A stretch of DNA of 64,000 nucleotides, from assembly GCA_964562175.1 (NCBI GenBank), contig CAZLRV010000003.1:15001-79000 (forward strand). The letters run 5' to 3'. The first letter of the stretch is position 1, and each line of letters starts with the position of its first letter. Below, one piece after another: positions 3,379-48,006 of this stretch. The notes under the pieces were generated by a model. That model was not told where the DNA came from. It made no database searches and saw nothing but the letters and a program-made list of their open reading frames with translations. Position numbers and translations under genes: made by a program. Origin of the DNA: an uncultured Lachnospiraceae bacterium. GTDB taxonomy: Bacteria > Bacillota > Clostridia > Oscillospirales > CAG-272.

Positions 3379-3416
3379 TATGATATATAATATCACATTA
3401 TATATATTATTATATT

Positions 3417-8354: not shown

Positions 8355-8364
8355 TTGCTCTCCT

Positions 8365-10596
8365 TTATATTCCGAGCTGTTGTTTATCCAGATCGTACTC
8401 TTCAAGTAACGAGGTACTTGCGGGCACCTTTATCTTTCTGTATTTTGCGACATTTTCAAACGGTGCCTCCTCTGCGGTATATGCACCGATGACACGTGCG
8501 CCTTTTTTAAGGTTTACGAGCGTTATACCGCCGGCACTTCGAGTCGTTTTCTCCGATATCAGCTTTGAGGGTATCAATGCGCCTCGCTTGTTATCGGTAA
8601 CGAGCAATATCGATATCGGCTCCTTCTCGTAGAAAATACCCACTATCGGCGATGCGGTGCTGTATGCACCGGTAAGCTTGCGGCGGTTTGACTTTGTTTC
8701 ATAGCACGACGGGCTGACGCGAACGCCTTTTCCGTTTTCAAAGACGAATATAAATCTGTCATCGGGCGATATATCCTTAAGCAGCTTCATGAATATTGCA
8801 CGCTCGCCCTTTTCAAAGCCGAGCTTTGTGGGTATATAATCGCCGAGTGCCGATGCCTTTGAGCAATCGAACTCCGACAGCTTCGCCTTGTACACCTGCC
8901 CTTTATCCGAGAAGAATATCACCTCGTCGATGTTTTCACCCCCTTCGGTCTGTGCTATGCTGTCGCCGTTTTTGAGCGTTTGCTCGTCGCTTACCTTAAG
9001 CGAGGTCAAGCGGCACTTTTTGAAATATCCCTCTTTTGTGAAGAAAAGCTTTACGTTGTAGTTTTCGATATTTTCCTCATGCTTATATGTTTGAGTTTCG
9101 TCCTCCTCCATTATAAGCGTTTTTCTCGGCTTGCCGTACTTCTTTTTTATCTCTTCAAGCTGCTTTGCGATAAGCTTTTTTATCTTTTTATCATCGGATA
9201 TTATGTCCTCAAGCTCCGCTATCTCGTTTTGAAGCGTTGTAATGTCCGCTATTCTGTTCAAAATATACTCACGGTTGAGGTAACGCAGCTTTATCTCGGC
9301 AACGTACTCGGCTTGTACCGTCGTGAGGTCGAATTCTTTTGCGAGATTCGGCACGACATCCGCTTCCTTTTCCGTGTTTCTTACGATCGCTATCGCTCTG
9401 TCTATATCAAGAAGTATCTTGCCCAGACCGAGAAGTAAATGAAGCTTATCTTTCTTTTCCTCAAGGTCAAAGCTCAGCTCACGCCTCAGGCAGTCTACTC
9501 TGAATGCTATCCACTCGGAAAGTATCTCAACGACTCCCATGACCTTAGGCGTGCCGTTTATAAGCACATTGAAGTTACAGCTGAAGGAATCCTCGAGCGG
9601 TGTCAGCTTGTACAGCTTAAGCATGAGCTTATCCGGATCAAAGCCGCGCTTTAAGTCAAGGGTGAGCCTGAAGCCGTTTATGTCTATCTCGTCACGGTAA
9701 TCGGATATCTCCTTAATTTTGCCGTCCTTTATGCCCTCGCCTATCTTCTTCATTATCTGCCCTATCGTGGTCGAATAGGGTATTTGAAGTATCTCTATGC
9801 AGTTGTTTTCCTTATCGTATATATATTTGGATCTTACCTTAAATGAGCCGTGACCCGTGGAATATATCTCTCGCATTTTTTCTCTGTTGTAGAGAAGTAT
9901 GCCTCCGCCGGGAAAATCGGGGGCTTTGACTATATCGAGCATACGATCCACGCTCGTATGGCTGTTTTTCAAAAGCTCAATAGTTCCGTCACATATCTCG
10001 GCAAGGTTGAACGAGCATATCCTTGACGCCATACCGACGGCAATGCCGAGGTTTGAGGAAACGAGAATGTTCGGAAAAGCCGTTGGAAGCAGAACCGGCT
10101 CTTTTCTTGTGCTGTCGTAGTTGTCGACCATATCGACGGCATTTTTGTTGAGTCCGGAAAATATCTCTCGGCATATCGGAGCCAGCTTCACCTCGGTGTA
10201 ACGGCTTGCCGCATATGCGTCATCACTGTATTGCTTACCGAAGGAGCCTTTTGAATCTATAAACGGGTGAAGCAGTGACTCGTTGTCAACGGTAAGTCGC
10301 ACGAGCGTTTCGTATATCGATGCATCTCCGTGAGGATTGTAACGCATTGTCGCACCGACTACGTTTGTGCTTTTCGTTCTCTCCCCACTCATCAAATTCA
10401 TTTGGTGCATCGTATAAAGAAGCTTACGCTGTGCGGGCTTGAAGCCGTCTATCTCCGGTATTGCACGGGAGATTATTACGCTCATCACGTATGGCATATA
10501 GTTTTTTTCTATCGTCTCGGTTATGGGCTGGTCTTTTATCTCGGCTTGCGTGAAATTATCCGTTATAAGCCCGTCTTTTTTCTTTTTCTTCGCCAT
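8365..10596 (-). CDS. type IIA DNA topoisomerase subunit A (ParC/GyrA-like, divergent)
   Basis: 743 aa. Contains AIPEIDGFKPAQRKLLYTM (counterpart of the canonical LPDVRDGLKPVHRR motif) and the catalytic-Tyr region AASRYTE. Confidence 0.85.
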   Translation of the reverse strand: MAKKKKKDGLITDNFTQAEIKDQPITETIEKNYMPYVMSVIISRAIPEIDGFKPAQRKLLYTMHQMNLMSGERTKSTNVVGATMRYNPHGDASIYETLVRLTVDNESLLHPFIDSKGSFGKQYSDDAYAASRYTEVKLAPICREIFSGLNKNAVDMVDNYDSTRKEPVLLPTAFPNILVSSNLGIAVGMASRICSFNLAEICDGTIELLKNSHTSVDRMLDIVKAPDFPGGGILLYNREKMREIYSTGHGSFKVRSKYIYDKENNCIEILQIPYSTTIGQIMKKIGEGIKDGKIKEISDYRDEIDINGFRLTLDLKRGFDPDKLMLKLYKLTPLEDSFSCNFNVLINGTPKVMGVVEILSEWIAFRVDCLRRELSFDLEEKKDKLHLLLGLGKILLDIDRAIAIVRNTEKEADVVPNLAKEFDLTTVQAEYVAEIKLRYLNREYILNRIADITTLQNEIAELEDIISDDKKIKKLIAKQLEEIKKKYGKPRKTLIMEEDETQTYKHEENIENYNVKLFFTKEGYFKKCRLTSLKVSDEQTLKNGDSIAQTEGGENIDEVIFFSDKGQVYKAKLSEFDCSKASALGDYIPTKLGFEKGERAIFMKLLKDISPDDRFIFVFENGKGVRVSPSCYETKSNRRKLTGAYSTASPIVGIFYEKEPISILLVTDNKRGALIPSKLISEKTTRSAGGITLVNLKKGARVIGAYTAEEAPFENVAKYRKIKVPASTSLLEEYDLDKQQLGI

Positions 10597-31367: not shown

Positions 31368-34300
31368 TTATTCTTCAACCGTAATAGTCTTAACAACGTT
31401 CATGGGTGACTCTCTGCCGTCCTTGTCAAGTGCGGTAAACGTGTACTTGTAAGTACCCGCCTCAAGCACTCCGAGGTCAACACTCATCATCGCCTTTTCG
31501 CCGTAAGCTACCGTGTTCTGCGATACTATCTCAACTTCGTTGCCGTTTTCATCAACTGCCTTTACGCTCGTTGCGTTTGCACTTGCTATAACGCTTACGA
31601 CAACATTCTCGCCGTACTCGTATGCAACTGCCGCCGATACGGAATCGATCGTGATATTCTCATTGATCTGATATCCCTCGTTAGCCGCAAGCATTACGCC
31701 CATTACGCTCTTAACGATTTCCGCATCCAAGCTTGTCGCAACCGCACCGCCCTTTACAACGTCACCCAAATTGAATTCCTCAAGCGTACATCCCGCATAT
31801 TTAATGTTGGATACGCTGACAACGGAATCCTCATCGTCGCCGTTTCTGTCGAGCATTACGATAACGGTATACGAGCCGTCAACGTTGTTAATGCACTTGC
31901 TTACATCTATAGAGTGGTACATAGCCGTGTAAGAGGTTATCTTAGTCGAAGTAGCAGGTAAGGTCAATTTTTCGGTAGCTATATCGTAGCCGACATATTC
32001 ATACCAACCAAGGTCATTACCCGATGCCTTCTTTGCCTCTATCTCAAGCACTACATCCTCTACACTTACGCCGTCATTGGGAAGTACTCTGAATACCAAC
32101 GCATTTCTGTTGCCCATGAGGTAGACCTCATTGTTAGGACCGACATTCGCATAGCTGTAAGTGCCGTCGCTATCGGAGAACGACCATTCGCCGTCCTTAA
32201 GTTCATCCTTCCAATACGTGTCGATACGCTCAACAACGGAGTTACCTGCAGAGAAGCTTACCTGCGTTCCCGTTCCGTCGCCCGTAGGAACGAAATCAAC
32301 TATTCCTACCGTGGGATTGTTCTTAAGAATGTTTGCACGAAGCTCCTCGATAGTAACATTCTGTTCTTTATAATGGTTGGTAATATTACTGTCGTTCTTT
32401 ACCGGATCGTAAATTCTTACACCGTCAAGGTAGAATCTCGTACCCTTGCCGTTTACAGGCTTTGAAACGTAGATTTCAACCGTGTACTCGTTGTAAGGCA
32501 AATCACGTATGCTTATTATCGGCACCTGATCGAGATGTCCGTTTACATACTGCGTGATGACGATCTTCTGTTTTTCTATATCACCGTTGTTCTTTTTGAC
32601 AACTACACGTACCATTGCGGATGAAAGGTTCGTGAAGCTTATCAGCTCAAAGCCCGTACCGTTAAAGGTGAATGTTGCGTTCTTATTTGCTCCGCTGTAA
32701 TCCGTTGCGTCCGTGTACAGTGCCGCATATGTTCCGTTACTGAAGTTGTAGTTGTTACCTACACCGTCAAAGCCGCCGATACCTTTCTTGAAGGTGTAGC
32801 CGCCAAGACCTGTGTACCATTTGAACTGGCTGTTTTTTTCAATCGTGTCAACGGTCGTCGTATCGTCGAGGTAAGACTTATCATATCCGTAATTCTCGTT
32901 TTGATTCGAGGACTGAGTATTTTGTGTCGTACCTGTGACCTTGCCTGTGTTCAAGCCGTTACTATAAACTATCGAACCGATATTCTCCTCGTAATATACG
33001 ACATATGCAGGTACAAAGCTTATCTTCTTGTACATCTGAATACCGTATTTTACGGAATACTTTTGAGCGTTATCGGTAGACTGACAAGTTTCGTCGGTAA
33101 TACCTACCGCCACGTAAACATCATCCGAACCATGCAAGAACTTCGAGGGTGTGTAAGTCAGGGGCGTAGCAGCTGCGGCAGTCGAACCGGCAGTGCCTGC
33201 AAATGAACCGTATGTTCCGGTTTCACTGAAATTGCTCGTGTAGCCCTCAACCGTACCGCTTGTCGTAGCGGTGGGCGCACTCTTCTTGAAGCCCAATATT
33301 TCTCTAAGCTCGTCGCCGTTTGTCGACAAGCTCAACGTGTCACCACTGCCGCCCAAATAAGGCGTACCGTCTTTCTCACCGGGATCGGCATATACCGTAA
33401 CCGGCAAGCCGTAGTCAAGTACATACGTTACATCACTCAAGCCGTACGTAAATACCGTTACACCGTAAGGACCGAATTTCTGAACCTGCTGTGTAGTCGG
33501 GTCTTGGGCAATCAACGTAAAGAAGTATGACGTTGTACCCGTGTTCTTAACATTCGAGGTGACCTTAGTGTCTGAAATATTATATCCGTCTTGATATGCA
33601 CCCGAAAGTGTCGTACCCGCTGTGATCTTGTGATCTCCGCTCGTTATCTTGTTCTTGTTCGCATCACTGATGTAAACACCTATCGTGTTGTCTTTCTTCA
33701 ATGCTCCGTATGTCGAGCTTCCTATTCTCGTGCTGTCGCTTATTACATCCGTAATGCTGTAAGTACGGTTGTGGTCCTCCCAAAGGTATATCCACAGATC
33801 CGATATGTTTACAACGAACTGTGCGTTACCCTCAAGCGCCTTGTACTGTCCACCGCCCTGATCGAACTGTGAACGTACACTTACCGTATTTACAAATGTA
33901 TTTTGGTCGATATTTGACTGAGTAAGGTAGTATATAACTCCCTTGATCGTCATTTTTTGTCCCGACGTTATACCTTTCTTAAGTACAGATTTTGCACTTC
34001 CCAAATCGAGATTTGAGTAGGTATTGACCGTCTTGCCTGTCGAATCCGTTATTATTATTGTAAGCTCGCTGAGCTGTCTGTTTGTCGTGCTTCCGCCCTT
34101 GGGAGTATATGAACCAAGCTCACATCTCCATGAGGAATCGCTTGCATTGTCATATCCGAGCGCAAATCCGAGAGCCGAATCCGTAAACTGCATATATTCG
34201 ATCTTGTTACTCGTGTCCTTTGAAATGTTCTCTGCCGAGAAGGTATATTGAAGCTTGTCGGAATCCTGTACGTTGTCACCGAACTCCAGCTGCTCGCCTT

Positions 34301-37300
34301 CAAGATAGCAATCCTTTTCAACAGGCATATCCGGAGATGAAAGACGAATGTTTGTCTGTATTGCAAAGTTTGCCGCAATACCGTGACGCTCCATGTAGAA
34401 GAATCTGAACTCATAGCTCTCGCCCTCAACAAGTCCGAGCTTGTTCTTTACGTCGTTTACGTAAAGCTCAACATCCGTACGTGAGTGAGCGCCGCCTATA
34501 TCAAGCACAAGTTGATTGTTGATAAAGAGGTAAACGTCATCGTCTCCCATGAATCGGAAGTAAAGGTTATCCGCTTCGTGATAAACGAATGCCGCATGAC
34601 CTTCCATTGAGAAGTTGTAGTTAAAGCCGGTATATCTATCACCGAAAGGAGAGTTGATCGTAGTTGCATCCTCACCGAGATAGAAAGGATCCGTGTCGCC
34701 GTAGCCAAGCGCTGTTTTGCTTCCGCCCATTCCCTGCATTGAATTTCTGCTTGAACCCAAGGGGTTAAACATATAGTTATAGTCCGGAAGGGGTGATACT
34801 CTTGTTTGACCATTCTTTATCTTATAGTAAGGAGTCGAAACCGTCTGGGTATTGTAGATGGACTTGCTTTCCTCGTCGTATTTTGTGCCGGCAAATCCGG
34901 AGCTGAATGTGTAGTTATACTTACCGTTGTTATCGACGCTTCGTACAAGTGCGAGGTTGTTATAGTTGCTTATCTCCATGCTGTAGCCCGTGCCGGTAAC
35001 ATTTCTATTTTGGTCTTGACCGGTGACATAGAGGCTGTTGAGCATATAGAGTGCAACATCCATGCAGGTGAAGCTGCCCTTGGCGCCGTTTTTGAAATTG
35101 CTGAGATTGTAATTTCTGCTCTTGGCGGTATTGTAATCGCCTACTTCATAATGTGCATATGCACCGAACAGACCGTTTGCCGTGCTGTCATTGAGCTTTG
35201 ATCTGAGAAGTGCCGCAAAATCTTTTCCCTTACCGTAAAGCTCGTCGTTTACCTCGCCGATTATCATATTGTGGTGCAAGTAGCCCTTGGCATACGCTGA
35301 ATTCTGGGTGCCTTCCTTAAGTGCATAAGCTAAGACATTTGCCAAAAACTCAACCGTACCCTGCTTGTATACGGGCTTTCCGTTTACAAGTGTAGCCTCG
35401 GTAAGTCCCTGTACCGCTATACCGCGTATAAGAGTACCGTAGCTCGTATTAACACGATTGCTGACATTATAAGAAGTGGCGTGTTGCAAATAATTCTGAG
35501 AGCCCGGTCTTATCGTACCTGTGCCGTTAATACCGAATAGATACGCATCGTCGGTCTTCGTGAAATTAGCGGTATAGTTATCATTGCCGTTTCCTGTGGT
35601 TTTCTGCTCCAATGCAAGACCGAAAGCAATATGGTTGCTCCGCTGTTGTGCATAATCAACGACGGGGTTGTAGAAGGTAGCGTAAAATTTGCAATATGCT
35701 TTTTGCTCCTCTACGCTCTTGCTTGAACCGTCTTTCTTGGAATATTGCAAGAATGCGACCGCACCGCAATCGAGTGTACTGCCGTTTGAGCTTGAAACAT
35801 ATATTTGACTGCCCTTCCAGTTCATCGCTTTCAATTCAACGGCAGCTGTGTGCCATTGACCGTCATTTCTTACATCCGGTATCTCAAGTCTCATCGATGA
35901 TTCTATCGTAAAGTTGTCCCGTCTCGTCTCAACATTCAAATACAGCTTATCAGCCCCTGTTTTATAACGCACGTTTGCGTAGTATACGGCTTGGTCGTTT
36001 ACCGTACCCAAGTCATCCAAGGTCAGACCATTTCTATTGTAGGCATACAAGAATATCATTTGCTGGTCGTATTTGTCACGATATGTGTGTGAGTTCGCAT
36101 CACCGCCGCTTGACCAGCCCGCAGTGTATGTTCCTTCAAAATCGGCGTAGTTCATTGCCGCAACGGAGCATATCTTAAGAGTTCCGGAATAGTCGAGCTT
36201 AAAGCCATATGCATCTGAGCCTGTTGCGATCTTGATGAACAGATCGTGCCATTTGTTATCTTTATATATCTTATAGTCCGATGCACTTGATGCAATCGCG
36301 TTACCATTTGTGTCCGTATAACGTGCGGTTATGCTCGTAACATCGGAGGTCTTATAGCGGACTCTCATATATCTGTGCGTGCTGATTGTCAAAGTCTGTT
36401 GTTTACCTACCGCATTCCATTTCTTTGAAAAACCGTTCGTAAAGCTGTGATACGGGTAATAAGCATCGTCCGTTGCCATTTGACTGCCGTTATCGTTAAT
36501 ACATATGGCAACATATTGAATGTCAATGGTGCTGCCATTGTTATTCCCGTTATCGGTAAAGTCAAACCATATTTTTTTAATGTTGCCGGTCCAATTGGCA
36601 TTGCTTTTCATATTGAATACAAGATTGTGCCAATTTCCGTCTTTGTTAAGCGACTTTCCGACACGTTTTCCACCATCACGTCCACCGTCACCGTTTTGGA
36701 AGAATATACCCATATCGGACGCATTGGTATTTGAAGTTTTGTATCTGACAACTATACTTCCGTAGTTATCCGCCTTAAGTTCTTTACCTATGCTTCCGAA
36801 ATCGGCAAGAATGTAAGCATCTCCGTTTGAAACTTCTGTCTCAAATGTATAATAATCGCCGTTCGCATCGTATGTCGAACTGTATTTACCATCGGGATAA
36901 GAGGTGCCGTTTACATTCTTTGCCAATGTTACGAATCGAGTATACTCATAATTGTAATCGTATAATGCCTCGTTTTGTGAAACTCTGGCGGCTTTCGGGT
37001 CGATCTTACCGTAATCGCGGCGCAACACCTCATCCCTTGTTGCATTGTATTCTATCTGATATTTACCAAACCACATTTCGTTGAACTCAAAGAGCATACC
37101 GTCGGCGGCATAGTCTCTTATCGTTATGGGGAGGTAAATAGCGTCGTTCGTCGTTACCTGATTGTAACCGTTGACTCTCGCAACATCAGCTTCGTTTGTG
37201 GAATCATATGATTGAGCGGTGAAATTATCCAAGCACATCTCGGAATTTTCACCCGAGTCGCCGCGGCTTACAAAGCAGAAACGGCTGTAGTTACGGATAA

Positions 37301-38369
37301 GTGAATTGTCGACCGTTGTCAGCTCGATACCGCCGGCATCCTTTACGGAGCAGGTTCTGTAATACATACTTGTATCGTCTGTGATAGCAGCTTTTTCGGC
37401 AAAGGTTATGGTTTTTTCGTCGGCACCGGTCTGAGCCAAAAGGTGCGTCTTCATGCCGAGCGTACCGTAATTTCTGCCCTCGATGATAAAAAGCAATCTG
37501 CCGTTGAGATAGAATGTTATCGTTGCAAGGCTATTGTATATCTCTTTATTGCTCGACGGATTCAAATACTCACGACCGTTGTCAACTATTCTGTAGTCGT
37601 TCCACTGGGTAAGATCCTCCTGGACTTGGAAATTAACAAACACGTTGTCGACATATCTGTTCGAATAGCCGCTTCCGGTAAGTGCCTTTTTTATTACCAG
37701 TGTAAGTGTATGCTTACCCGATACCCAAAGGCCTATACCCGAGCCGCCGATGAATTTCTGGGTCTGCGTATCTCCTGAGCTTACAAGCGAATCGCTCTCG
37801 TAGTAGTTCAACGTAGCATAGTTAGGCTTTCTATACGCCTCAAAGTCTCCGGAGTCGCCTCTGAAAAAGAATGCGTTAGGGCTTGTGACGGATGTAACCG
37901 CCGATTTATACCGGAAGTTCAGCTCATAGCCCTGAGCTGCGTTTTTGTTGTTCGTTACGGCGTAGAAATTCGTTATCATCTGGAAATATTCATTTCCGTC
38001 GATCTTTAAATATTTCGAGCCGTCGGCACTGCCCTCCGAGGTAATGTAACCGGGGTTATTTCCCGAGCTTCCATTTGCTATAGTCGGAGTGAAGTAGTTC
38101 CAACCGCTTGCGCCGTGCGTTGCGTTTGATTTTTTTGTCATTATCGATTGTCCTTCCGCATCGCCGGCAAGATCGAAGGACAGATCTGCCCACTTGTCGT
38201 TATCAGAGTCTATAAAAGTCTTTGCGCTTGCGGGTCGTCCTATGGCTTCTCGTTCAAAGCCCGGTATCGTTCCGCTGTATGTATATGCAAGCATATCAAC
38301 GGGAAGCGATGTAGCGAGCATTATTGCCGTGAGGACACAGGCAAACAAGCGCAGCTTAAATCTCTTCAT
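31368..38369 (-). CDS. 2333-aa secreted giant protein with a fibro-slime/PA14-like domain, a LamG-like N-terminal region, and repeated beta-sandwich modules
   Basis: Strong RBS AGGAGG and signal peptide MKRFKLRLFACVLTAIMLATSLPVDMLA. Core FRFMGDDDVYLFINNQLVLDIGGAHS...YEFRFFYMERHGIAANFAIQTNI matches the fibro-slime (TIGR02148-type) signature from memory. I see no LPXTG, SLH, dockerin or C-terminal TM. Confidence 0.85.
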   Translation of the reverse strand: MKRFKLRLFACVLTAIMLATSLPVDMLAYTYSGTIPGFEREAIGRPASAKTFIDSDNDKWADLSFDLAGDAEGQSIMTKKSNATHGASGWNYFTPTIANGSSGNNPGYITSEGSADGSKYLKIDGNEYFQMITNFYAVTNNKNAAQGYELNFRYKSAVTSVTSPNAFFFRGDSGDFEAYRKPNYATLNYYESDSLVSSGDTQTQKFIGGSGIGLWVSGKHTLTLVIKKALTGSGYSNRYVDNVFVNFQVQEDLTQWNDYRIVDNGREYLNPSSNKEIYNSLATITFYLNGRLLFIIEGRNYGTLGMKTHLLAQTGADEKTITFAEKAAITDDTSMYYRTCSVKDAGGIELTTVDNSLIRNYSRFCFVSRGDSGENSEMCLDNFTAQSYDSTNEADVARVNGYNQVTTNDAIYLPITIRDYAADGMLFEFNEMWFGKYQIEYNATRDEVLRRDYGKIDPKAARVSQNEALYDYNYEYTRFVTLAKNVNGTSYPDGKYSSTYDANGDYYTFETEVSNGDAYILADFGSIGKELKADNYGSIVVRYKTSNTNASDMGIFFQNGDGGRDGGKRVGKSLNKDGNWHNLVFNMKSNANWTGNIKKIWFDFTDNGNNNGSTIDIQYVAICINDNGSQMATDDAYYPYHSFTNGFSKKWNAVGKQQTLTISTHRYMRVRYKTSDVTSITARYTDTNGNAIASSASDYKIYKDNKWHDLFIKIATGSDAYGFKLDYSGTLKICSVAAMNYADFEGTYTAGWSSGGDANSHTYRDKYDQQMIFLYAYNRNGLTLDDLGTVNDQAVYYANVRYKTGADKLYLNVETRRDNFTIESSMRLEIPDVRNDGQWHTAAVELKAMNWKGSQIYVSSSNGSTLDCGAVAFLQYSKKDGSSKSVEEQKAYCKFYATFYNPVVDYAQQRSNHIAFGLALEQKTTGNGNDNYTANFTKTDDAYLFGINGTGTIRPGSQNYLQHATSYNVSNRVNTSYGTLIRGIAVQGLTEATLVNGKPVYKQGTVEFLANVLAYALKEGTQNSAYAKGYLHHNMIIGEVNDELYGKGKDFAALLRSKLNDSTANGLFGAYAHYEVGDYNTAKSRNYNLSNFKNGAKGSFTCMDVALYMLNSLYVTGQDQNRNVTGTGYSMEISNYNNLALVRSVDNNGKYNYTFSSGFAGTKYDEESKSIYNTQTVSTPYYKIKNGQTRVSPLPDYNYMFNPLGSSRNSMQGMGGSKTALGYGDTDPFYLGEDATTINSPFGDRYTGFNYNFSMEGHAAFVYHEADNLYFRFMGDDDVYLFINNQLVLDIGGAHSRTDVELYVNDVKNKLGLVEGESYEFRFFYMERHGIAANFAIQTNIRLSSPDMPVEKDCYLEGEQLEFGDNVQDSDKLQYTFSAENISKDTSNKIEYMQFTDSALGFALGYDNASDSSWRCELGSYTPKGGSTTNRQLSELTIIITDSTGKTVNTYSNLDLGSAKSVLKKGITSGQKMTIKGVIYYLTQSNIDQNTFVNTVSVRSQFDQGGGQYKALEGNAQFVVNISDLWIYLWEDHNRTYSITDVISDSTRIGSSTYGALKKDNTIGVYISDANKNKITSGDHKITAGTTLSGAYQDGYNISDTKVTSNVKNTGTTSYFFTLIAQDPTTQQVQKFGPYGVTVFTYGLSDVTYVLDYGLPVTVYADPGEKDGTPYLGGSGDTLSLSTNGDELREILGFKKSAPTATTSGTVEGYTSNFSETGTYGSFAGTAGSTAAAATPLTYTPSKFLHGSDDVYVAVGITDETCQSTDNAQKYSVKYGIQMYKKISFVPAYVVYYEENIGSIVYSNGLNTGKVTGTTQNTQSSNQNENYGYDKSYLDDTTTVDTIEKNSQFKWYTGLGGYTFKKGIGGFDGVGNNYNFSNGTYAALYTDATDYSGANKNATFTFNGTGFELISFTNLSSAMVRVVVKKNNGDIEKQKIVITQYVNGHLDQVPIISIRDLPYNEYTVEIYVSKPVNGKGTRFYLDGVRIYDPVKNDSNITNHYKEQNVTIEELRANILKNNPTVGIVDFVPTGDGTGTQVSFSAGNSVVERIDTYWKDELKDGEWSFSDSDGTYSYANVGPNNEVYLMGNRNALVFRVLPNDGVSVEDVVLEIEAKKASGNDLGWYEYVGYDIATEKLTLPATSTKITSYTAMYHSIDVSKCINNVDGSYTVIVMLDRNGDDEDSVVSVSNIKYAGCTLEEFNLGDVVKGGAVATSLDAEIVKSVMGVMLAANEGYQINENITIDSVSAAVAYEYGENVVVSVIASANATSVKAVDENGNEVEIVSQNTVAYGEKAMMSVDLGVLEAGTYKYTFTALDKDGRESPMNVVKTITVEE
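34345..34640 (-). other. fibro-slime / PA14-like core (about aa 1245-1340 of the giant protein)
   Basis: GFNYNFSMEGHAAFVYHEADNLYFRFMGDDDVYLFINNQLVLDIGGAHSRTDVELYVNDV...GESYEFRFFYMERHGIAANFAIQTNIRL. Codons were verified against the DNA at 34321-34380 and 34501-34560. Confidence 0.7.
35745..36857 (-). repeat. three divergent protein-level modules of about 100-125 aa ('RYKT' modules) inside the giant protein
   Basis: Shared signatures are SIVVRYKTS...DGNWHNLVF, YMRVRYKTS...DNKWHDLFI and YANVRYKTG...DGQWHTAAV, with RYK at about aa 542, 671 and 801. Confidence 0.6.
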
Positions 38370-38472: not shown

Positions 38473-38739
38473 CTACTCAGTCAGCAGGCCTTTAAGTCTG
38501 AGCATACGCAGCATCTTTTCGATATCGTCCTCGGCTTGATCCTTTTCCACCTCGTACTCATCGCACAAGAGCCGCACAAGCTCATCCGTTGTAACATCCT
38601 CGCCCAAGCGTTGCATTATCAGCGCACCTGATTCGGATGTGGTGATAATACCCTCATACGGATCGGAGCATGAGTTTACGGCAACAAAAACATATTCTCC
38701 CGCTATCTTTTTCATAACGAGCTTTTGTCTTAATCGCAT
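38473..38739 (-). CDS. PqqD-family (RiPP recognition element-like) small protein
   Basis: 88 aa: KKIAGEYVFVAVNS...GIITTSESGALIMQRLGEDVTTDELVRLLCDEYEVEKDQAEDDIEKMLRMLRLKGLL. This fits the PF05402 pattern (bound strand, then a winged helix with a 'YdV..e.a..Dv..fl..L...gli' tail). An AAGGAGGG RBS lies 7 nt upstream. Confidence 0.75.
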   Translation of the reverse strand: MRLRQKLVMKKIAGEYVFVAVNSCSDPYEGIITTSESGALIMQRLGEDVTTDELVRLLCDEYEVEKDQAEDDIEKMLRMLRLKGLLTE

Positions 38740-38773: not shown

Positions 38774-38802
38774 ATTGTATCATACAAAATATAATTTGTC
38801 AA
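38774..38802 (-). promoter_or_regulatory. consensus-like sigma-A promoter of the PqqD-giant-peptide operon
   Basis: On the minus strand: TTGACA (38802-38797), 17-nt spacer, TACAAT (38779-38774). The -10 element ends 34 nt upstream of the PqqD-like ATG. Confidence 0.7.
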
Positions 38803-39191: not shown

Positions 39192-40025
39192 ATGGACGAA
39201 CAGAAGAAATCGCAGCTATGTGAGCTTGCGAACAATATCAGGAAAGATATTATCACCGAGGTATACACGGCATCATCGGGCCATCCGGGCGGTTCGCTTT
39301 CAATCGCCGATCTGCTTGCATATCTTTATTTTGAAAAAATGAACGTAAAAGCGGACAATCCCAAATGGGAGGATCGTGACCGTCTTGTATTATCGAAGGG
39401 TCACACTGCGCCCGCACTTTACGCCGCACTTGCGGAGAAGGGCTTTTTCCCGAAGGAAGAGCTTGTGGGATTCAGAAACATAAATTCCTTTTTGCAGGGA
39501 CATCCCGACATGAAGCACACGCCGGGAGTTGATATGTCCTCCGGTTCGCTCGGCTTGGGAATTTCCGCAGCTTGCGGAATGGCACTCGGCGGTAAGGTAC
39601 AGAATAAGTCATTCAGAGTATATACGGTACTCGGTGACGGTGAGATAGCCGAGGGTCAGGTATGGGAGGCGGCAATGTTTGCCGCACATTACAAGCTTGA
39701 CAATTTGACGGCATTTGTCGATTGGAACGGCTTACAGATAGACGGAGCGATAGTTGACGTAATGGACTCCACGCCTATCGACGAAAAGTTCCGTGCATTC
39801 AAGTGGAACGTAGCGGTGATAGACGGTCACGACTTTGACCAAATAGACGAGGCTGTGACAAACGCCGAGGCGTGTGTCGGCAAGCCGAGTGTAATAATAA
39901 TGAAAACAATAAAAGGAAAAGGTGTTTCCTACATGGAAAACAAGGCAAGCTGGCACGGTTCCGCTCCGAATGCGGAGCAGTACGAGCAGGCTATGTCGGA
40001 GCTTGGGGGTAAGTGCAATGGCTGA
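39192..40025 (+). CDS. transketolase, N-terminal (TPP pyrophosphate-binding) subunit
   Basis: 277 aa with the pattern SSGHPGGSLSIADL...LSKGH...GSLGLG...LGDGE typical of split transketolase. Confidence 0.9.
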   Translation: MDEQKKSQLCELANNIRKDIITEVYTASSGHPGGSLSIADLLAYLYFEKMNVKADNPKWEDRDRLVLSKGHTAPALYAALAEKGFFPKEELVGFRNINSFLQGHPDMKHTPGVDMSSGSLGLGISAACGMALGGKVQNKSFRVYTVLGDGEIAEGQVWEAAMFAAHYKLDNLTAFVDWNGLQIDGAIVDVMDSTPIDEKFRAFKWNVAVIDGHDFDQIDEAVTNAEACVGKPSVIIMKTIKGKGVSYMENKASWHGSAPNAEQYEQAMSELGGKCNG

Positions 40026-40968
40026 GAAGATAGCAACGAGAGAGGCGTACGGCAACGCATTGGCGGAGTTCGGCGCAAAGTATGACAAATTAGTCGTTTT
40101 GGATGCTGACCTTGCGGGAGCCACCAAGACAGGCGTTTTCAAAAAGGCGTTTCCCGAACGTCATTTTGATTGCGGAATAGCCGAGGGCAATATGTTTTCG
40201 GCGGCGGCGGGCTTGTCAACGACGGGACTTATACCCTTTGCATCCACGTTTGCCATGTTTGCGGCGGGACGTGCGTTTGAGCAGATAAGAAACTCTATAG
40301 GATATCCGCACCTCAATGTTAAAATAGGTGCGACTCATGCGGGAATCACCGTCGGCGAGGACGGTGCGACGCATCAATGTCTTGAGGATTTCGCAACGAT
40401 GCGTTCCATACCGGGAATGACGGTCATATGCCCTGCCGATGCGGTCGAGGCAAGATGTGCGGTCGAGGCGGCAATAAACTATGAGGGTCCCGTTTATTTG
40501 CGTTTCGGACGTGCGGCAGTTCCCGTACTTTTCGATAAAGAAACGTACAAATTTGAAATGGGCAAGGGTGTTGTGCTTGCCGAGGGTACAGACGTTACGC
40601 TTATCGCAAACGGTGTTATGGTAGATCTTGCGCTCGGTGCGGCAAAGTGCTTGTCCGAGCAGGGTATTTCGGCAAGAGTCATAAATATGCACACTGTAAA
40701 GCCGCTTGACGAGAAGCTTGTGCTTGAGTCTGCGACAGCCACGGGTTGTATCGTGACCTGCGAGGAGCATAACATAATCGGCGGCTTGGGCGAGGCTGTA
40801 TGCTCATGTGTATGCTCTGCCCGTCCCGTTCCCGTTTTGCGTGTCGGAGTAAACGATACCTTCGGCAGAAGCGGCAAGGTTGCGCCTCTTATGGAATATT
40901 ACGGACTTACCGTTGAAAATATCGTCGCAAAAGCACTTGCCGCCGTTGAAATGAAGAAAAATGGCTGA
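40018..40968 (+). CDS. transketolase, C-terminal (pyrimidine-binding) subunit
   Basis: Start at MAEKIATREAYG (ATG 40018) overlaps the upstream stop. It shows the FDCGIAEGNM and THAGITVGEDGATHQ motifs. Confidence 0.9.
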   Translation: MAEKIATREAYGNALAEFGAKYDKLVVLDADLAGATKTGVFKKAFPERHFDCGIAEGNMFSAAAGLSTTGLIPFASTFAMFAAGRAFEQIRNSIGYPHLNVKIGATHAGITVGEDGATHQCLEDFATMRSIPGMTVICPADAVEARCAVEAAINYEGPVYLRFGRAAVPVLFDKETYKFEMGKGVVLAEGTDVTLIANGVMVDLALGAAKCLSEQGISARVINMHTVKPLDEKLVLESATATGCIVTCEEHNIIGGLGEAVCSCVCSARPVPVLRVGVNDTFGRSGKVAPLMEYYGLTVENIVAKALAAVEMKKNG

Positions 40969-41872
40969 AAAATTCGAGCCTTGCGGGCTTATCTGCATTG
41001 ATAAGCCCGAGGGGCTTACCTCTCACGATGTTGTGAATAAAATAAGACGGCTTTTCGGAACGAGAAAAGTCGGTCATACAGGCACCCTCGACCCTATGGC
41101 GACGGGGGTGCTTGTCGTGCTTGTCGGACGTTGTGCCAAGGCAAGCGAATATCTGCTTTGCGATGATAAGCAATATACGGCACGTATAAAATTGGGTATT
41201 ACCACGGACAGCGAGGACATTACGGGCAAAATAACATCTCAAAGCGACGCTTTGCCGTCGGAGAAAGAATTTCACGAAATATTAAAAGGCTTTATCGGTG
41301 ATATCGTTCAGGTACCGCCGATGTATTCGGCAATTAAGGTCGGCGGAAGGAAGCTTTACGAGCTTGCGAGAAGCGGGCAGACCGTTGAACGTGAGGGACG
41401 GAGGGTGAGCATACGCCGACTTGAAGCGAGACGTTTGAGTGAGGACGAGTATGAGCTTGACGTTACCTGCTCAAAGGGTACATATATACGCACGCTTTGC
41501 TCCGATATCGGAGGTGCCTGCGGCTGCGGTGGGGTAATGTCATATTTAAGGCGAGTGGCAAGCGGACGATTTACGCTCGGCGATACTCACACGCTATGCG
41601 AGCTTGAGGAGCTTGAGTCGGCACAAAGATACGAGCTGCTTTTACCCACGGAAGCACTGTTTGCCGACCTTCCCGCCGTTCGATTCAACAAATTTTACGA
41701 GCGGCTTTTCAAAAACGGATGTGAGATCTATCAGAATAAAGTCGGTCTGTCCTATCCGCTCGGCACACGGCTTGCAATATATGACGACGGCGGCTTTTAC
41801 GCACTGGGCGAGGTATTTTCATTTGAGGACGGCTTGGGTATCAAATCTATTAAAATTTTCAGATTGGATTAG
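40961..41872 (+). CDS. truB: tRNA pseudouridine(55) synthase
   Basis: GLICIDKPEGLTSHDVV...GHTGTLDPMATGVL with the catalytic Asp motif. Confidence 0.92.
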   Translation: MAEKFEPCGLICIDKPEGLTSHDVVNKIRRLFGTRKVGHTGTLDPMATGVLVVLVGRCAKASEYLLCDDKQYTARIKLGITTDSEDITGKITSQSDALPSEKEFHEILKGFIGDIVQVPPMYSAIKVGGRKLYELARSGQTVEREGRRVSIRRLEARRLSEDEYELDVTCSKGTYIRTLCSDIGGACGCGGVMSYLRRVASGRFTLGDTHTLCELEELESAQRYELLLPTEALFADLPAVRFNKFYERLFKNGCEIYQNKVGLSYPLGTRLAIYDDGGFYALGEVFSFEDGLGIKSIKIFRLD

Positions 41873-41875
41873 TTT

Positions 41876-44800
41876 ATGCAATTATTGCTCGATTACATGA
41901 GAGCGGAACGTGAATACAAGGGCTTTATCGAACACAGGCGTTCCCTTTTGACACGCAAGCCCAAGCCCGTCGGCGTAACGGGATTATCGGACGGAGCAAA
42001 ATACGCTTTTTACGCCGCTTCGATAAAGGATCTCAAAAAATGCGCTCTCATTATCGTACCGGACGAAAAGGACTGTATCAGGGCTTATAATTCCCTATCC
42101 GCATACGGCTTGGCTTGCGGCGTTTACCCATTGAGAGATCTCATGCTTCACTCGGTGATATCCTCACACGATTACGAGCATCAGCGTTTATCGGTGCTTT
42201 CGGGGATATTAAACGGCACACTTGATTGTGTTATCGCAACGCCGGATGCCGTTATGCAATTCACCACACCGAAGAATGTACTTAAGAACAATTCTCTGAC
42301 ATTATCGCTCTCGGACACATGCGAGCTTTCACAGCTGTGTGAGATGTTGACCGAGTCGGGCTATGCGAGGGTGGAAACGGTTGACGGCATCGGTCAATTT
42401 TCCGTAAGGGGCGGAATCGTCGATATATTTTCACCCGGCTCGGAGTATCCGTACAGAATGGAGCTGTTCGGCGATGAAATAGATTCGATGGGCATATTCG
42501 ACATACTGTCGCAAAGACGTATCGAGAGCATATTATCGCTTACCGTTTTGCCCGTCCGTGAGGTCATAGCCGACAATGAGGGGCGTAAAAAGATATATTC
42601 GGCAGTCGAGGCGGCACTTAAAAAGGTCAAAAAATCGGATGCGAAAAAGGAACTGCTCACAGAGCTTGACGCACTCGATGCCGGCGGGGAGCTTTTATTC
42701 GCAGACAAGTACATGAGTTTGATATATGATGAAAGCACCTGTCTGTTAGATTACTTTTCAAATGAGAGCCTTATTTTCATTGACGGCTCCGCAGGTGTTT
42801 CCGCTCGTGTTGAAGCATATGAGAAAATGACCGAAAACACGATACTCGGAATGATAGAGTCGGGGCAGATACTTGCAAAATACGCCTGCTACGGTATTTA
42901 CGGCGATGACCTTTATTCCTTGATAAATTCAAAAAACTCGGTATATATAGATGTTTTCGTGCGTTCGGGCGTGAATTTCGACCAGACTTTTTCTTTCAGA
43001 AGCTCGAATCAGCCGTACTATTCGGACAGCATGGAGCTTTTATGCGAGGATGTGACCAATTATATTTCAAGCAATTACGCCGTGATATTGCTTTGCGAAA
43101 ACGAGGCGACGGCGAAGAACTATTCAAAAATGCTCGACGAGCATTCCATATCCTCTCTAAGCATATCAAGTGAAACGGAAGAGGCAAGCATTGATATGCT
43201 GTACGGCAAGTGCGTGCTCGTATACGGCTCATTTTGCCCCGGCTTTATTCTTGAGGGTGTGCATCTTGCCTGTATTTCCCTTTGCGTAAATCAAAGCTCA
43301 TACAACAAAAAGACAGTAAGGACCTCAAGCAGAACCAAAAAGGGTTCGGGCAAGGAGCGTATCATGTCCTACGCCGATCTTGTCATCGGCGATTACGTCG
43401 TACACGATACGCACGGCATCGGTCTTTACAACGGTATCAAGTCGCTTACGGATTATCAGGGTGTTACAAAGGATTTTCTGCAAATAGAATATTCCGAGGG
43501 CTCGCTACTGTATGTTCCGTGCGACAGACTTGACACTTTATCCAAATATATCGGTGCGAGAATGAGTGACGGCACCGTCAAGCTCAACAAAATGGGCGGT
43601 GGCGAGTGGAACAAATCCAAAGCCAAGGTCAAAGCCGCAGTAAGAGAGATGGCTCGTGAGCTTATCGAGCTTTACGCAAAGCGTATGAAAACGCCAGGCT
43701 TCAAGTTTTCGCATGATGACGATATGCAAAGGCAATTCGAGGGTGCGTTTGAGTATGAGGAAACGGAATGTCAGCTTGAGGCGTGCAATGATATAAAGCG
43801 TGATATGCAATCGGAGCATCCCATGGACAGACTCTTGTGTGGCGATGTCGGCTTCGGTAAGACCGAGGTCGCATTGCGTGCGGCTTTCAAGGCGGTATGT
43901 GACAACAAGCAGGTCGCAATACTCGTTCCCACCACCATACTTGCAATGCAGCATTATCAAACGGTGCTTTCCCGTATGCGTACATTTCCCGTTTCAGTCG
44001 ATCTGCTCTCGCGCTTCCGAACGCAAAAGCAACAGCTTGAAACGCTCAGACGGCTGAAGCGAGGTGATGTCGATATCATAATCGGCACGCACAGGCTCAT
44101 ATCAAAGGACGTTGAATTTAAGGACTTGGGACTTATCATAATCGACGAGGAACAGCGTTTCGGAGTGGCTCACAAAGAGAGGCTTAAGCAGATATCGAAA
44201 AACGCCGACGTGCTGACGCTCACCGCAACGCCGATACCGAGAACGCTCAACATGGCGATAAGCGGTATACGCGATATGAGCGTGCTTGACGAGCCGCCGG
44301 GGGACAGAATGCCTCCGCAATCGTATGTCATAGAATACGATGAGCTTATAATTGCCGAGGCAATAAAAAAAGAGTTAAGGCGCGGCGGTCAGGTGTTCTA
44401 TCTGCACAACGAGGTCGAGGACATAGATCTTTGCGCATCGAAAATAGCAAAGCTTGTGCCGGATGCCTCAATATCGATCGCACACGGGCAAATGGATAAA
44501 GAGGAGCTGTCGGACGTGTGGCAAAGCGTTGTAGACGGACGGACGGATATCCTTGTATGCACGACTATTATAGAAACGGGTATCGACGTGCCGAATGCGA
44601 ATACGCTCATCATAGAAAATGCCGATAAAATGGGCTTGTCACAGCTTCATCAGATACGAGGTCGTATCGGCAGAAGCTCGCGTCGGTCTTATGCGTATTT
44701 TACATATCGTAAGGATAAGGTACTTACGGAAATTGCCGAAAAGCGACTTAAGGCACTGAGCGAATACACGGAATTCGGTTCGGGCTTCAAAATAGCTCTT

Positions 44801-45379
44801 CGTGACCTTGAGCTGAGGGGTGCGGGCAATGTCTTGGGCGTACAGCAACACGGTCACATGGAGAGTGTAGGCTATGATATGTACATAAAGCTGTTAAACG
44901 AGGCGGTGCTTGAGGAAACGGGTACTGTCGAGACGAAAAAGAGCGATTGCTCCGTGGAGCTTAACATATCGGCGTACATTCCGGAGGATTATATAACCTC
45001 GTCCTCACAGCGTATTGAGATATACAAGAAGATATCGCATATAATCACATCAGCCGATGCGGACGATATCGCATCGGAGCTGTTAGACCGTTTTGGCGAT
45101 ATACCGAACACGGCATGCTCGCTCATAGACATTTCGTATATCCGCTCGATGGGCTGTGAATGCGGTATTAAAAAGATAGCGCAAAACGGCAACACGGTGA
45201 CCTTTACTCCGGAGGAAAACGATTTGAAGAAGCTCGTCGGTCTGACAACTGAGTCAAACGGGCGAATGTTCATCATCCCCGGTGCATCGCCTACCGTTGT
45301 TTACAGGATAAAAAAGGGTGACAACGTGCTTTCGTATATCAAAAAGGCACTTGAGTGTGCCGTGAGCGATCGCATATAG
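41876..45379 (+). CDS. mfd: transcription-repair coupling factor
   Basis: 1167 aa with a UvrB-homology N-terminus, an RNAP-interacting CarD-like region ([11 protein letters not shown]), helicase motifs [11 protein letters not shown] and DEEQRFGV, and a TRG motif. Confidence 0.95.
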
Positions 45380-45469
45380 TGTAAATTATTTTTTAATTAT
45401 TCAATATTTAATTGAAATATACGCTTTTTGGGTGTAGAATTACCACATAAAACGTATAAGGTCTGTCAT

Positions 45470-46750
45470 ATGCAATATTTTAGAAAAGAGATAGCACCCG
45501 GTGTCGGGTTCAATGCTATCAAGACGGACGTATTCAAATCTGAATATGTGTCCGTGTATACGGTAAGCCCTCTGTCGACTGAAAGCGCATCGTATAATTC
45601 CCTGCTCTGCAACACAACGATAAGGGGGTGCGAGAAATATCCGTCGCTAAAGGATATAAGCCGTCTGCTCGATCGGCTCTACGACTCTTATATCTCGCCC
45701 GTATCGCTCAAACGCGGGGAGTATCACATATTCGGCTATTCCGCATCGTCGCTTAAAAGTCGGTTTTCAATTGAAAAGCAAGATATACTTGCACGCACGC
45801 TCGATCTTCTGTACGAAATAATGTGCCGTCCTCTGCTTATCGACGGTGCGTTTTCGGACGATATAGTGCAGATGGAAAAATCAAATCTCATATCGGCAAT
45901 AGAAGCGAGAGTGAACGACAGAGTGTCTTATGTACCGACCGCTTGCGTTGCCAAAATGTGCGAGGGTGAGCCTTTCGCCGTACCGGACTACGGAATTGCC
46001 GAGGTAATAAAGAGTATCGACCCGACAAGTCTTTACGAATACAGCACCGAGCTGTATAAAAAAAGTCGCATTGAAATTTTCTATGTCGGCGACGACGAGG
46101 GAGTGATAAACGGCTTTTGCGAAAAGCTTATCTCCTCCGTCGGCATCGGTGAGCGTTTGTCACTGCACGGCGCACGTGTACATTCCGCACCCTTAAAACC
46201 AAGGCGTTTTGAGGAGAAGGCTCCCGTCACGCAAAGCAAGCTTGCGCTCGGCTTCAACACGGGCAGGCGACTCGGCGAGGGACGAGATGCGTCGGATACG
46301 GTGTTTTTTGAGATATTTTCCTCATCTCCGTCAAGCAGACTGTTCAAAAACGTGCGTGAAAAGCTCTCGCTCTGCTACTATTGCAAATGCAACACCGACC
46401 CGTTCAAGGGAATCTCCGTTGTTTCCGCAGGCATAAGAGCGGAGGATGCGGCGTTAGCCGAGGCTGAGATACTCGCACAGCTCAAAGACCTGAGTGAGGG
46501 CAACATATCGCAAAAGGAACTTGACGAGGCGAAAAAGACATTGCTGTCCGCTTGCCGTGAAATATACGATTCTCCTTCCGCTCTCATAAATTGGTATTTG
46601 AACAGAGTCTTGTCCGACTCCACCGAGCTTTTATTCTCTCCCGATGAGCAAGCAGAGAAAATACGCTCCGTAACCGTCTCGGAGGTTGCAAAATGTGCCG
46701 AGCGGATGAGTCTTGACACGGTATATCTGCTTAAGGAGGGTGAGCAATGA
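45470..46750 (+). CDS. M16-family peptidase-like protein (non-catalytic partner; no HxxEH seen)
   Basis: About 426 aa from ATG 45470 (MQYFRKE). It has an insulinase-like fold pattern and is translationally coupled (4-nt overlap) to the next M16 gene. Confidence 0.65.
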   Translation: MQYFRKEIAPGVGFNAIKTDVFKSEYVSVYTVSPLSTESASYNSLLCNTTIRGCEKYPSLKDISRLLDRLYDSYISPVSLKRGEYHIFGYSASSLKSRFSIEKQDILARTLDLLYEIMCRPLLIDGAFSDDIVQMEKSNLISAIEARVNDRVSYVPTACVAKMCEGEPFAVPDYGIAEVIKSIDPTSLYEYSTELYKKSRIEIFYVGDDEGVINGFCEKLISSVGIGERLSLHGARVHSAPLKPRRFEEKAPVTQSKLALGFNTGRRLGEGRDASDTVFFEIFSSSPSSRLFKNVREKLSLCYYCKCNTDPFKGISVVSAGIRAEDAALAEAEILAQLKDLSEGNISQKELDEAKKTLLSACREIYDSPSALINWYLNRVLSDSTELLFSPDEQAEKIRSVTVSEVAKCAERMSLDTVYLLKEGEQ

Positions 46751-48006
46751 TAAAAGATAAAAAAACCGTCTACGACGAGATGACGGGCGAGTGCTGTAAT
46801 ATAGTCACCCTTGATAACGGTCTGCACGTATATCACATACCGAGCAAGCATATCACGTCCCATGCACTGTTCGGTGTTGATTACGGCTCGGTGCATAGGA
46901 TATATCAAAAAAACGGTTCTCAAATAATCACGCCGTCCGGCTGTGCGCATTTTTTGGAGCATAAGCTGTTCGATAACCCCGACGGTGTTGCGGACGATAT
47001 ATTCACCTCGCTTGGGGCAAGCTGTAATGCGTTTACCTCATCGAGCGTCACCGCATACACGTTTTCATGTACGGATAATTTTTTGCCGTGCCTCGATACA
47101 CTGCTCGACTTCGTATCGACTCCGTATTTCACCGAGGCAAGCGTGAAAAAAGAATGCGGTATCATTGCCGAGGAAATACGTATGTACGACGATATGCCGT
47201 CGTGGTGCGCATATTTTAATATGCTCAAAGCCATGTACGGGCAATGTCCCATCTCCGAGGACACCGCAGGCAGCTGTGAATCAATAACGCATATAACTCC
47301 CGAGCTGCTGTACGAGCTTCACCGCGATATGTACACTCTTGACAATATGCATCTGTGCGTTTACGCCGACTCACCGCTTGAGCAGATATTGATGCGTGCC
47401 GACCGACTTCGCTCACCTAAATGTCAGATAACGCAAATACCGCCACAGACCAAGCCGGGCATTTTTCAAGCAAGGAAGGAGCATATTTCTCAAAGTCCCG
47501 TACCGCTGGTATTTATCGGGCTTAAGGATGACGATGTGCCGAAGAACGGAGCGGAGGCGACCAAGCGTGAGTGTATCATGTCCTGTCTGCTGAACACGCT
47601 TTTTTCCGAAAGCTCGGATATTTTCGAGGAGCTTTATTCAAGCTCACTAATAATCGGCAGACTTGACTGCGAATATATATGCGAAAAGGATTTTGCATAT
47701 CTTTATTTCAGCTGTGAGTCACCCGCACCGGAGGAGCTGTTCAAGCATCTGTCGGAATACTGCGAGAGGATATGTGCCGAGGGAATCGACAAAGAGCGTT
47801 ATGAAATATCAAAGCGCATGGTATATGCCGATTTTATCCGCTCATTCGATTCTCGTGACGATCTGCCCTACTGTATGTACAGAGAACGAGAAAATATTTT
47901 CGACCATCCCGCAATGATATCTTCCTCAAGTGTGGAGACGGCACACGAATTGTTCAAAAAGCTTTTCAAAACGGAAAATCTCGTTATGTCCGTTTCACAT
48001 TCATAA
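46747..48006 (+). CDS. M16-family zinc peptidase (pitrilysin/insulinase type)
   Basis: 419 aa with the inverted zinc motif HFLEHKLF (HxxEH). Confidence 0.8.
   Translation: MIKDKKTVYDEMTGECCNIVTLDNGLHVYHIPSKHITSHALFGVDYGSVHRIYQKNGSQIITPSGCAHFLEHKLFDNPDGVADDIFTSLGASCNAFTSSSVTAYTFSCTDNFLPCLDTLLDFVSTPYFTEASVKKECGIIAEEIRMYDDMPSWCAYFNMLKAMYGQCPISEDTAGSCESITHITPELLYELHRDMYTLDNMHLCVYADSPLEQILMRADRLRSPKCQITQIPPQTKPGIFQARKEHISQSPVPLVFIGLKDDDVPKNGAEATKRECIMSCLLNTLFSESSDIFEELYSSSLIIGRLDCEYICEKDFAYLYFSCESPAPEELFKHLSEYCERICAEGIDKERYEISKRMVYADFIRSFDSRDDLPYCMYRERENIFDHPAMISSSSVETAHELFKKLFKTENLVMSVSHS

Follow-up and report, generated by a model that had tools for sequence, protein, structure and literature searches.

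We describe here a fibro-slime domain that is, with good probability, encoded in pieces within one large secreted protein of a gut bacterium. The protein of 2333 amino acids (aa), referred to below as the query, is encoded on the minus strand of the window, the 64,000-nucleotide (nt) stretch that was analysed (positions 15,001 to 79,000 of contig CAZLRV010000003.1, assembly GCA_964562175.1, from an uncultured Lachnospiraceae bacterium), by one uninterrupted open reading frame (ORF) at 31368..38369. We consider it quite probable that aa ~405-1345 form one extended fibro-slime domain whose coding sequence is broken up by nested insertions, and this view is supported by four independent lines of evidence: canonical compact units, profile alignment after deletion of the insertion, natural relatives and AlphaFold2 (AF2). 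An original prediction, made by a model from the sequence alone, had proposed one fibro-slime/PA14-type fold interrupted by nested domains, and this central claim was borne out, since the protein with the insertion deleted in silico aligns end to end with canonical units, the first element is modelled as a strand, and the spacing between the elements varies among relatives. Membership in the fibro-slime family is ordinary; the discontinuous architecture is family-wide and previously undescribed. The gene and its parts were mapped in window coordinates as follows.

31368..38369, minus strand: the whole gene, encoding a secreted 2333-aa protein with an N-terminal Sec-type signal peptide (MKRFKLRLFACVLTAIMLATSLP...)
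37155..38279, minus strand: N-terminal region, aa 31-405, without a Pfam family and common only to the homologs P0155, P0169 and P0216
37077..37139, minus strand: element 1, aa 411-431 (IYLPITIRDYAADGMLFEFNE), beta-strand 1 of the extended fibro-slime fold together with the loop behind it
36882..37076, minus strand: linker, aa 432-496, start of the first insertion, of low confidence or disordered in the model and the most variable segment
36486..36881, minus strand: RYKT module 1 (M1), aa 497-628, beta-rich, ~130 aa, with beta-strands in AF2
36099..36485, minus strand: RYKT module 2 (M2), aa 629-757, placed by profile homology and AF2
35694..36098, minus strand: RYKT module 3 (M3), aa 758-892, with a sub-threshold Laminin_G_2 match
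35445..35693, minus strand: end of the first insertion, aa 893-975, where family-conserved sequence returns at ~aa 915 (AF2 and alignment A1, which holds the query and nine close homologs)
35358..35444, minus strand: element 2, aa 976-1004 (...GLTEATLVNGKPVYKQG), homologous to the canonical G.V...Lg.D..PVy strand pair
34770..35357, minus strand: second insertion, aa 1005-1200, a helical subdomain plus a beta extension that is not in canonical compact units
34335..34769, minus strand: core, aa 1201-1345, a fibro-slime/PA14-like beta-sandwich with FNPLG ... GDDDVYLFIN ... DIGGAH ... FYMERH ... FAIQTNI
31371..34334, minus strand: C-terminal region of ~990 aa, conserved family-wide, without a significant Pfam family

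The motifs quoted in the original prediction are all present in the order it gave, and their exact positions could be mapped in the ORF. LVNGKPVYKQG lies at aa 994-1004, FNPLG at aa 1201-1205 (and not at ~aa 1250, where it had been placed), NYNFSMEGHAAFVY at aa 1250-1263, FRFMGDDDVYLFINNQLVLDIGGAH at aa 1271-1295 and FRFFYMERHGIAANFAIQTNI at aa 1321-1341, while RYKT is found at aa 542, 671 and 801. Two curated models recognise the last part of this series. TIGR02148 Fibro_Slime (NCBIfam) scored 82.4 bits at aa 1250-1342, covering positions 3-89 of its 90 (curated cutoff 45 bits, judged together with near-full model coverage), and Pfam PA14 (PF07691) scored 46.5 bits at aa 1249-1347, covering positions 42-137 of 147 (gathering threshold 24 bits). 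The prediction had named a domain complete within aa ~1200-1345 as the finding that would speak against it. The TIGR02148 match is indeed complete in aa 1250-1342, but the model itself represents only the last ~90 of ~210 canonical residues, so a complete match there does not amount to a complete domain.

First, the whole unit exists in compact form in other proteins. In an exhaustive profile search, 4018 representative proteins matched at E<=1e-3, and two of them carry tandem units of ~210 aa, namely P0199 from the testate amoeba Difflugia compressa (four units) and P0232, another bacterial protein (three units). Their elements follow each other in the order l.v.iRDF..HPDF, G.V..Lg.D..PVy, F.QW[FY], FFPID, HNF.FT, GDDDVWVFI, DLGG.H and FFAERH, and the element pattern that the original prediction had given as falling within about 200 aa can thus be seen in real sequences. 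All elements of the extended canonical unit are found in the query in the canonical order. They are not contiguous, that is, not within ~200-220 aa, and instead span aa 411-1341: element 1 is 579 aa from element 2 (~43-50 aa in canonical units), and element 2 is 204 aa from FNPLG (~50 aa in canonical units).

Second, profile alignment connects the dispersed elements with these compact units. Using the seven units of P0199 and P0232 as the canonical template, hhalign aligned the 23 family members of shortest spacing along practically the whole template (99.8%, E 3.4e-29, template 1-214 of 215). When the core was cut off from these short forms, the N-terminal elements by themselves were still matched (96.1%, E 3.4e-9), and element 1 alone was aligned to the canonical l.v.iRDF with P 2e-5. 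Similar results were obtained with a query-anchored 45-sequence alignment from which aa 436-959 had been deleted in silico, the kind of construct that the original prediction had suggested. Here, aa 405-435 joined to aa 960-1012 matched the N-terminal 74 canonical columns (94.8%, E 5.2e-8), and the fully spliced 235-aa query unit matched the canonical units from end to end (99.9%, E 4.2e-34, template 1-209 of 211). Random two-segment splices of the same alignment (n=118) reached a best score of 13.8, compared with 42.2 for the real splice, and a best probability of 1.1%; the resemblance of the upstream elements is therefore far beyond chance. With the full insertion kept as match states, hhalign did not bridge the ~550 columns, and the upstream elements were placed in the right register without significance. 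A chance match in the order of the motifs was also considered as an explanation and was rejected.

Third, structure prediction supports a place for element 1 in the fold. In the AF2 model of a short homolog (P0031, aa 30-451, 36-sequence alignment), the mean predicted local distance difference test score (pLDDT) was 92.1 and the predicted template modelling score (pTM) was 0.92; element 1 formed a 10-residue strand (model residues 9-18) with pLDDT ~96, the helical subdomain followed element 2, and the unit was modelled as a single rigid body. The query model (aa 400-1360) had a mean pLDDT of 72.4 and a pTM of 0.60. Element 1 was again a strand (aa 411-419, pLDDT 95), aa 433-475 fell below 50, aa ~496-877 appeared as three beta-rich blocks (pLDDT 55-88), the strands of element 2 were found at aa 978-987 (pLDDT 85-96), the helical subdomain was recovered, and the core had pLDDT 92-97. 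Foldseek matched the short-homolog model to PA14 carbohydrate-binding domains (MpIBP 6xa5/5j6y, RsgI 6qe7 and KmBglI 3abz) with probability 1.0 and E ~2e-4 over ~108 columns, the superposed part being the C-terminal ~100 residues of the unit, which identifies a PA14 beta-sandwich fold, and matched the query model to tandem jelly-roll proteins, including reelin repeats, glycosidases bearing carbohydrate-binding modules (CBMs) and discoidin/neuropilin.

These data also bear on a different explanation, in which element 1 is an independent N-terminal motif (for sorting, as a propeptide or for chaperone binding) and the fibro-slime domain begins at element 2 or later, so that nothing is inserted into the fold. 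Such a motif would agree with the position of element 1 directly after the signal peptide in most homologs, including the close-homolog set (n=120, 1365-1620 aa, Clostridia metagenome-assembled genomes (MAGs)), where it is ~80% identical, with its much stronger conservation than that of the rest of the protein, with the PqqD-family protein of peptide-binding type encoded next door, and with its location outside the Pfam PA14 match. However, element 1 is not tied to the N-terminus, since it begins at aa 411 in the query and lies at aa 370-1060 in many relatives, and the same element is the first strand of the canonical compact units. The profile-profile support for the N-terminal elements does not depend on the core, AF2 makes element 1 a 10-residue strand of a single rigid body at pTM 0.92, and it occurs with or without a PqqD gene close by. 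We regard an independent motif as improbable, and the single extended domain remains our preferred reading.

Fourth, the insertion can be followed among natural relatives of the query. PITIRDYAADGMLF is invariant in alignment A1. Among the close homologs, the gap between elements 1 and 2 is 89 aa in the shortest (P0031-type) and ~200-266 aa in the others, and the gap between element 2 and the core is constant at 203-216 aa. For example, the flanks of P0031 and P0073 are near-identical, and the two proteins are set apart by a clean indel of one 118-aa module at the site after element 1. A wider set of 98 representatives at 50% identity shows values of 30 to 842 aa (median 276) for the first spacing and of 162 to 468 aa (median 222) for the second; by this measure the first spacing of the query is 553 aa, and ~15 of the 98 representatives exceed it. 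This range marks the loop after strand 1 as a hot spot of insertion in the whole family. After element 1 the query has ~530 extra aa relative to canonical spacing and ~490 relative to the shortest close homologs, the modules making up 396 of them. The second insertion, of ~150-190 aa, is mostly helical and forms a gap in the hhalign alignment. Both insertions, including the three RYKT modules in the first, had been correctly foreseen, but the sizes given for them, ~570 and ~240 aa, were too large, and the second is found in every family representative examined.

The contents of the loop also vary. A second module type of ~118 aa, with the motif WHC[IV]ICNSDG (P0073, P0004, P0014 and others), occupies this loop in 72 of 85 close homologs; it belongs to no Pfam family and is apparently unrelated to the RYKT modules. 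The number of modules after strand 1 varies among family members from none or one to several, and at least two unrelated types occur. This variation has to be considered together with the possibility that the long form is ancestral, in which case the compact forms arose by deletion and the modules were the original linker domains between halves that fused later. The ortholog P0155, 45% identical to the query, already carries the full set of three modules, as this scenario would allow. On the other side stand the compact units in distant lineages (Amoebozoa and another bacterial protein), the unrelated module types, the copy number from 0 to several and the near-continuous range of spacings at the site; furthermore, halves of a beta-sandwich lying 500 aa apart could not have worked before fusing. 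An ancestral long form therefore seems unlikely to us, and whichever direction is correct, the fold is interrupted in the present protein. Separately, a third insertion site was observed in P0167, P0175, P0192, P0194, P0219 and others, where 20-60 additional residues split the core between its DLGG.H region and the final strands; this site is absent from the query.

The three RYKT modules are homologous to each other. Self-BLAST of the 2333-aa protein gave no internal repeats at BLAST sensitivity, so profiles were needed, and hhalign then related M1 to M2 (P 1.2e-6), M1 to M3 (P 1e-6) and the remaining pair (P 2e-4), with VRYK, D and WH invariant among the three. A hidden Markov model (HMM) built from the query and ortholog modules found matches at the same site in P0178, P0203, P0169, P0216, P0173 and P0190 (1e-11 to 1e-5) and weaker ones (~1e-4) to the RY.v.kYRT modules of close homologs, and an HMM of the type A module from close homologs gave in-register but non-significant matches to the query. 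A homolog search with the insertion alone returned nothing at E<=1e-3, and PDB sequence searches returned no relatives. A PDB profile search of the modules gave no significant relative and weak matches to neurexin LNS domains; Laminin_G_2 scored 20.8 bits on M3, below its gathering threshold of 22.9, and CBM_6 gave a sub-threshold E of 0.5 on a related module. The modules are probably jelly-rolls of the CBM/LamG-like kind, and the C-terminal region of ~990 aa probably consists of Ig-like or other beta domains. We also noticed that the N-terminal region (aa 31-405) contains a NFRYKS motif resembling the RYKT modules; the RYKT module HMM gives no match there.

Several points weigh against the reading of one interrupted domain in a surface protein, or limit what can be built on it. 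The packing of strand 1 on the core sheet is predicted from pLDDT, pTM and homology, and the inserted modules are modelled with only moderate confidence in a query model of modest pTM. In the in-silico deletion constructs, the Pfam PA14 match did not extend towards the N-terminus; this result is uninformative, because PA14 is likewise partial (model positions 43-131) on the canonical Difflugia protein P0199. No Pfam, PDB or NCBIfam family reaches threshold on the RYKT modules. Neither a sortase motif close to the C-terminus of the protein nor an anchoring motif of any kind was found, and the window neighbours are housekeeping genes (murE, transketolase, truB, mfd, hisS, aspS, cls and lgt), not genes for carbohydrate-active enzymes. 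A secreted or surface multivalent glycan or fibre adhesin is accordingly a putative role for the whole protein, and these points speak against a firm functional call.

Sequence divergence was compared along the protein. An uncultured Lachnospiraceae MAG (L001) provides the best genomic relative; its protein P0155 has 2354 aa and retains all three modules. In L001 the gene (1813-8877) is divergent to a transketolase subunit gene (116-943) whose product is 86% identical to that of the window, and in the window the giant gene, starting at 38369, is likewise divergent to the transketolase N-subunit gene at 39192. P0155 is the positional ortholog of the query because they share this neighbour. The two giant proteins are 45.5% identical overall, and with the transketolase at 86%, the giant protein evolves far faster than its neighbour. 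The identity to P0155 differs strongly from part to part.

Element 1: 74%
Core: 66%
N-terminal region: 52%
Helical subdomain: 50.5%
C-terminal region: 49%
Modules M1-M3: 29-33%
Linker, aa 433-496: 25%

Three strain variants differ at 29 sites, and 15 of these are located in aa 433-975, a segment making up 23% of the length (P = 8e-4). Taken together, ortholog and strain divergence show that the insertion evolves faster than any other part of the protein and that strand 1 evolves most slowly. The same data allow the possibility of an artefact (a chimeric assembly, a fused ORF or a pseudogene in decay) to be judged. The frame is uninterrupted over 2333 aa, four strain variants are identical in length and one of them in sequence (P0272 in NCBI is identical to the query), and the syntenic ortholog has the same architecture; no point in support of an artefact was found, and its probability is negligible. 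A chimera of the assembly or gene was rejected on the open frame, the equal-length variants and the syntenic ortholog.

The family is widely distributed. A scan of species-representative genomes gave 122 confirmed loci, and the 80 that were listed come almost all from gut Clostridia of ruminants and humans (Oscillospiraceae, Ruminococcus, Faecousia, Lachnospiraceae and others). The occurrence in Firmicutes, which the original prediction had held to be notable, is thus usual for the family, and several members are already named 'fibro-slime domain-containing protein'. In the searchable literature, fibro-slime proteins are discussed almost only for Fibrobacter, and the discontinuous architecture is not described.

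From these results, an architecture for this large Sec-exported protein of a gut Lachnospiraceae bacterium can be proposed. A beta-sandwich unit of ~210 residues, PA14-like in its C-terminal half, would be encoded in pieces: the first strand (aa 411-431), a loop insertion of ~490-530 aa with three tandem beta modules of ~130 aa, element 2 (aa ~976-1004), a helical subdomain of ~150-190 aa and the PA14-like core (aa 1201-1345). In the folded protein the sandwich may act as a rigid scaffold that displays exchangeable, fast-evolving binding modules of jelly-roll type. Both the scaffold and the adhesin role are suggested by analogy with the cellulose-binding fibro-slime proteins of Fibrobacter and with PA14 lectins.

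Next to the giant gene, a small ORF of the PqqD family and a possible promoter were found.

38473..38739, minus strand: PqqD-family ORF of 88 aa, 103 nt upstream of the giant gene and on the same strand
38774..38802, minus strand: strong promoter-like site TTGACA-17-TACAAT with TG, upstream of the PqqD ORF, a consensus match only

The ORF matches PF05402 with 50.6 bits (E 2.4e-13, model 3-67 of 67, gathering threshold 23.4) and reaches no NCBIfam subfamily cutoff, and no terminator-like site was found on the minus strand between it and the giant gene. A PqqD-like ORF is present in 41 of the 69 related loci for which sufficient upstream DNA was available. In 26 of the 41 it shares the strand of the giant gene and mostly abuts or overlaps the start codon of the giant gene, and in the other 15, which belong to a different clade, it is divergent and ~1 kb away. 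Element 1 is present in all 69 loci, with or without a nearby PqqD, and gives no discriminating signal. A functional link between the PqqD ORF and the giant protein is speculative.

A cluster for ribosomally synthesised and post-translationally modified peptides (RiPPs) would be expected to have a precursor peptide and a maturase (radical SAM, lasso cyclase, HprK-like etc.) adjoining the PqqD gene. Among the scanned ORFs of at least 150 aa in the 20-51 kb part of the window, no gene of this kind, and no RiPP maturase, was found near the PqqD gene. We also propose, tentatively and as a rather unlikely extension, that in gut Clostridia the loop after strand 1 is a display site for interchangeable, quickly diversifying modules that set strain-level glycan or host specificity, and that the presumably co-transcribed protein of the PqqD/RiPP recognition element type, acting outside any RiPP pathway, is a dedicated chaperone. 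It would hold the orphan, ultra-conserved strand 1 (or else the N-terminus) until synthesis and export of the core, which lies up to 800 residues further downstream.

Other features of the gene neighbourhood were recorded as well. In the locus of homolog P0018 (L081 12601-17300 together with L082), the giant gene precedes a 72-aa ORF, a weak ScmC/HprK-like gene, a GH20 gene with FIVAR and a radical SAM/SPASM gene, a gene set that is possibly the peptide-modification context lacking in the window. In L041 (130-1707), from the clade whose element 1 reads WPIKIYDY, the PqqD-like gene is divergent and followed by a Cys-containing ORF of ~90 aa, and a lipoprotein gene lies between the PqqD-like gene and the giant gene. 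In the window, a pair of M16-family peptidase genes is located at 45428-48006 on the plus strand, after mfd and ~7 kb from the PqqD ORF. M16 peptidases act in some PqqD-dependent pathways; the two genes here are probably just the common housekeeping pair. No plasmid match was obtained by megablast with the neighbouring genes (window 39192-45379).

These findings have several implications. Domain databases annotate only the last ~90-100 residues of the fold, and large surface proteins of gut Clostridia, in the thousands (the 4018 representatives), therefore appear as 'PA14 plus unknown'. Recognition of a discontinuous unit with a defined hot spot provides correct domain boundaries for structural and binding studies, and the fast-evolving inserted modules are likely specificity determinants in an abundant, uncharacterised adhesin-like family of the herbivore and human gut. 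The family also shows that a beta-sandwich can, in nature, accommodate as many as ~800 inserted residues behind strand 1. In addition, no link between the conserved PqqD-like partner and proteins of this kind has been described.

Compared with known systems, the query is closest to the canonical fibro-slime domain (TIGR02148/IPR011874; F. succinogenes and Amoebozoa, Difflugia P0199), with which it shares, in order, l.v.iRD[FY], G.V..L..dGkPVY, F.P[IL][DG], [HN][NY]F.[FM].E, GDDDV[WY].FIN, D.GG.H, F[FY].ERH and F.I.TNI. The canonical unit is contiguous over ~210 aa, whereas that of the query spans ~935 aa through its three-module insertion of ~500 aa and helical insertion of ~150-190 aa, and the host is a Gram-positive member of the Clostridia instead of Fibrobacter or a eukaryote. 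Cellulose binding has been shown for fibro-slime proteins of Fibrobacter succinogenes (PMC4668043), which mediate adhesion and are induced on cellulose; these properties are known for that species only. The RYKT modules resemble LamG/ConA-like domains and jelly-roll CBMs in being beta-rich and ~130 aa long and in carrying the DG.WH motif typical of LamG-like domains, but they stay below the thresholds of these families and have no close relatives outside their own protein family. PA14 lectins (Epa/Flo and MpIBP) bind sugars in a calcium-dependent manner through a DcisD-type site. To PA14 domains in general (PF07691; MpIBP 5j6y/6xa5, C. thermocellum RsgI 6qe7 and K. marxianus beta-glucosidase 3abz) the query corresponds in its C-terminal ~100 residues (model 42-137 of 147 only), whereas the N-terminal half of the unit is a feature of the fibro-slime family alone. 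The PA14 domain of KmBglI is an inserted domain; in the query, by contrast, the PA14-like fold is the recipient of the insertions.

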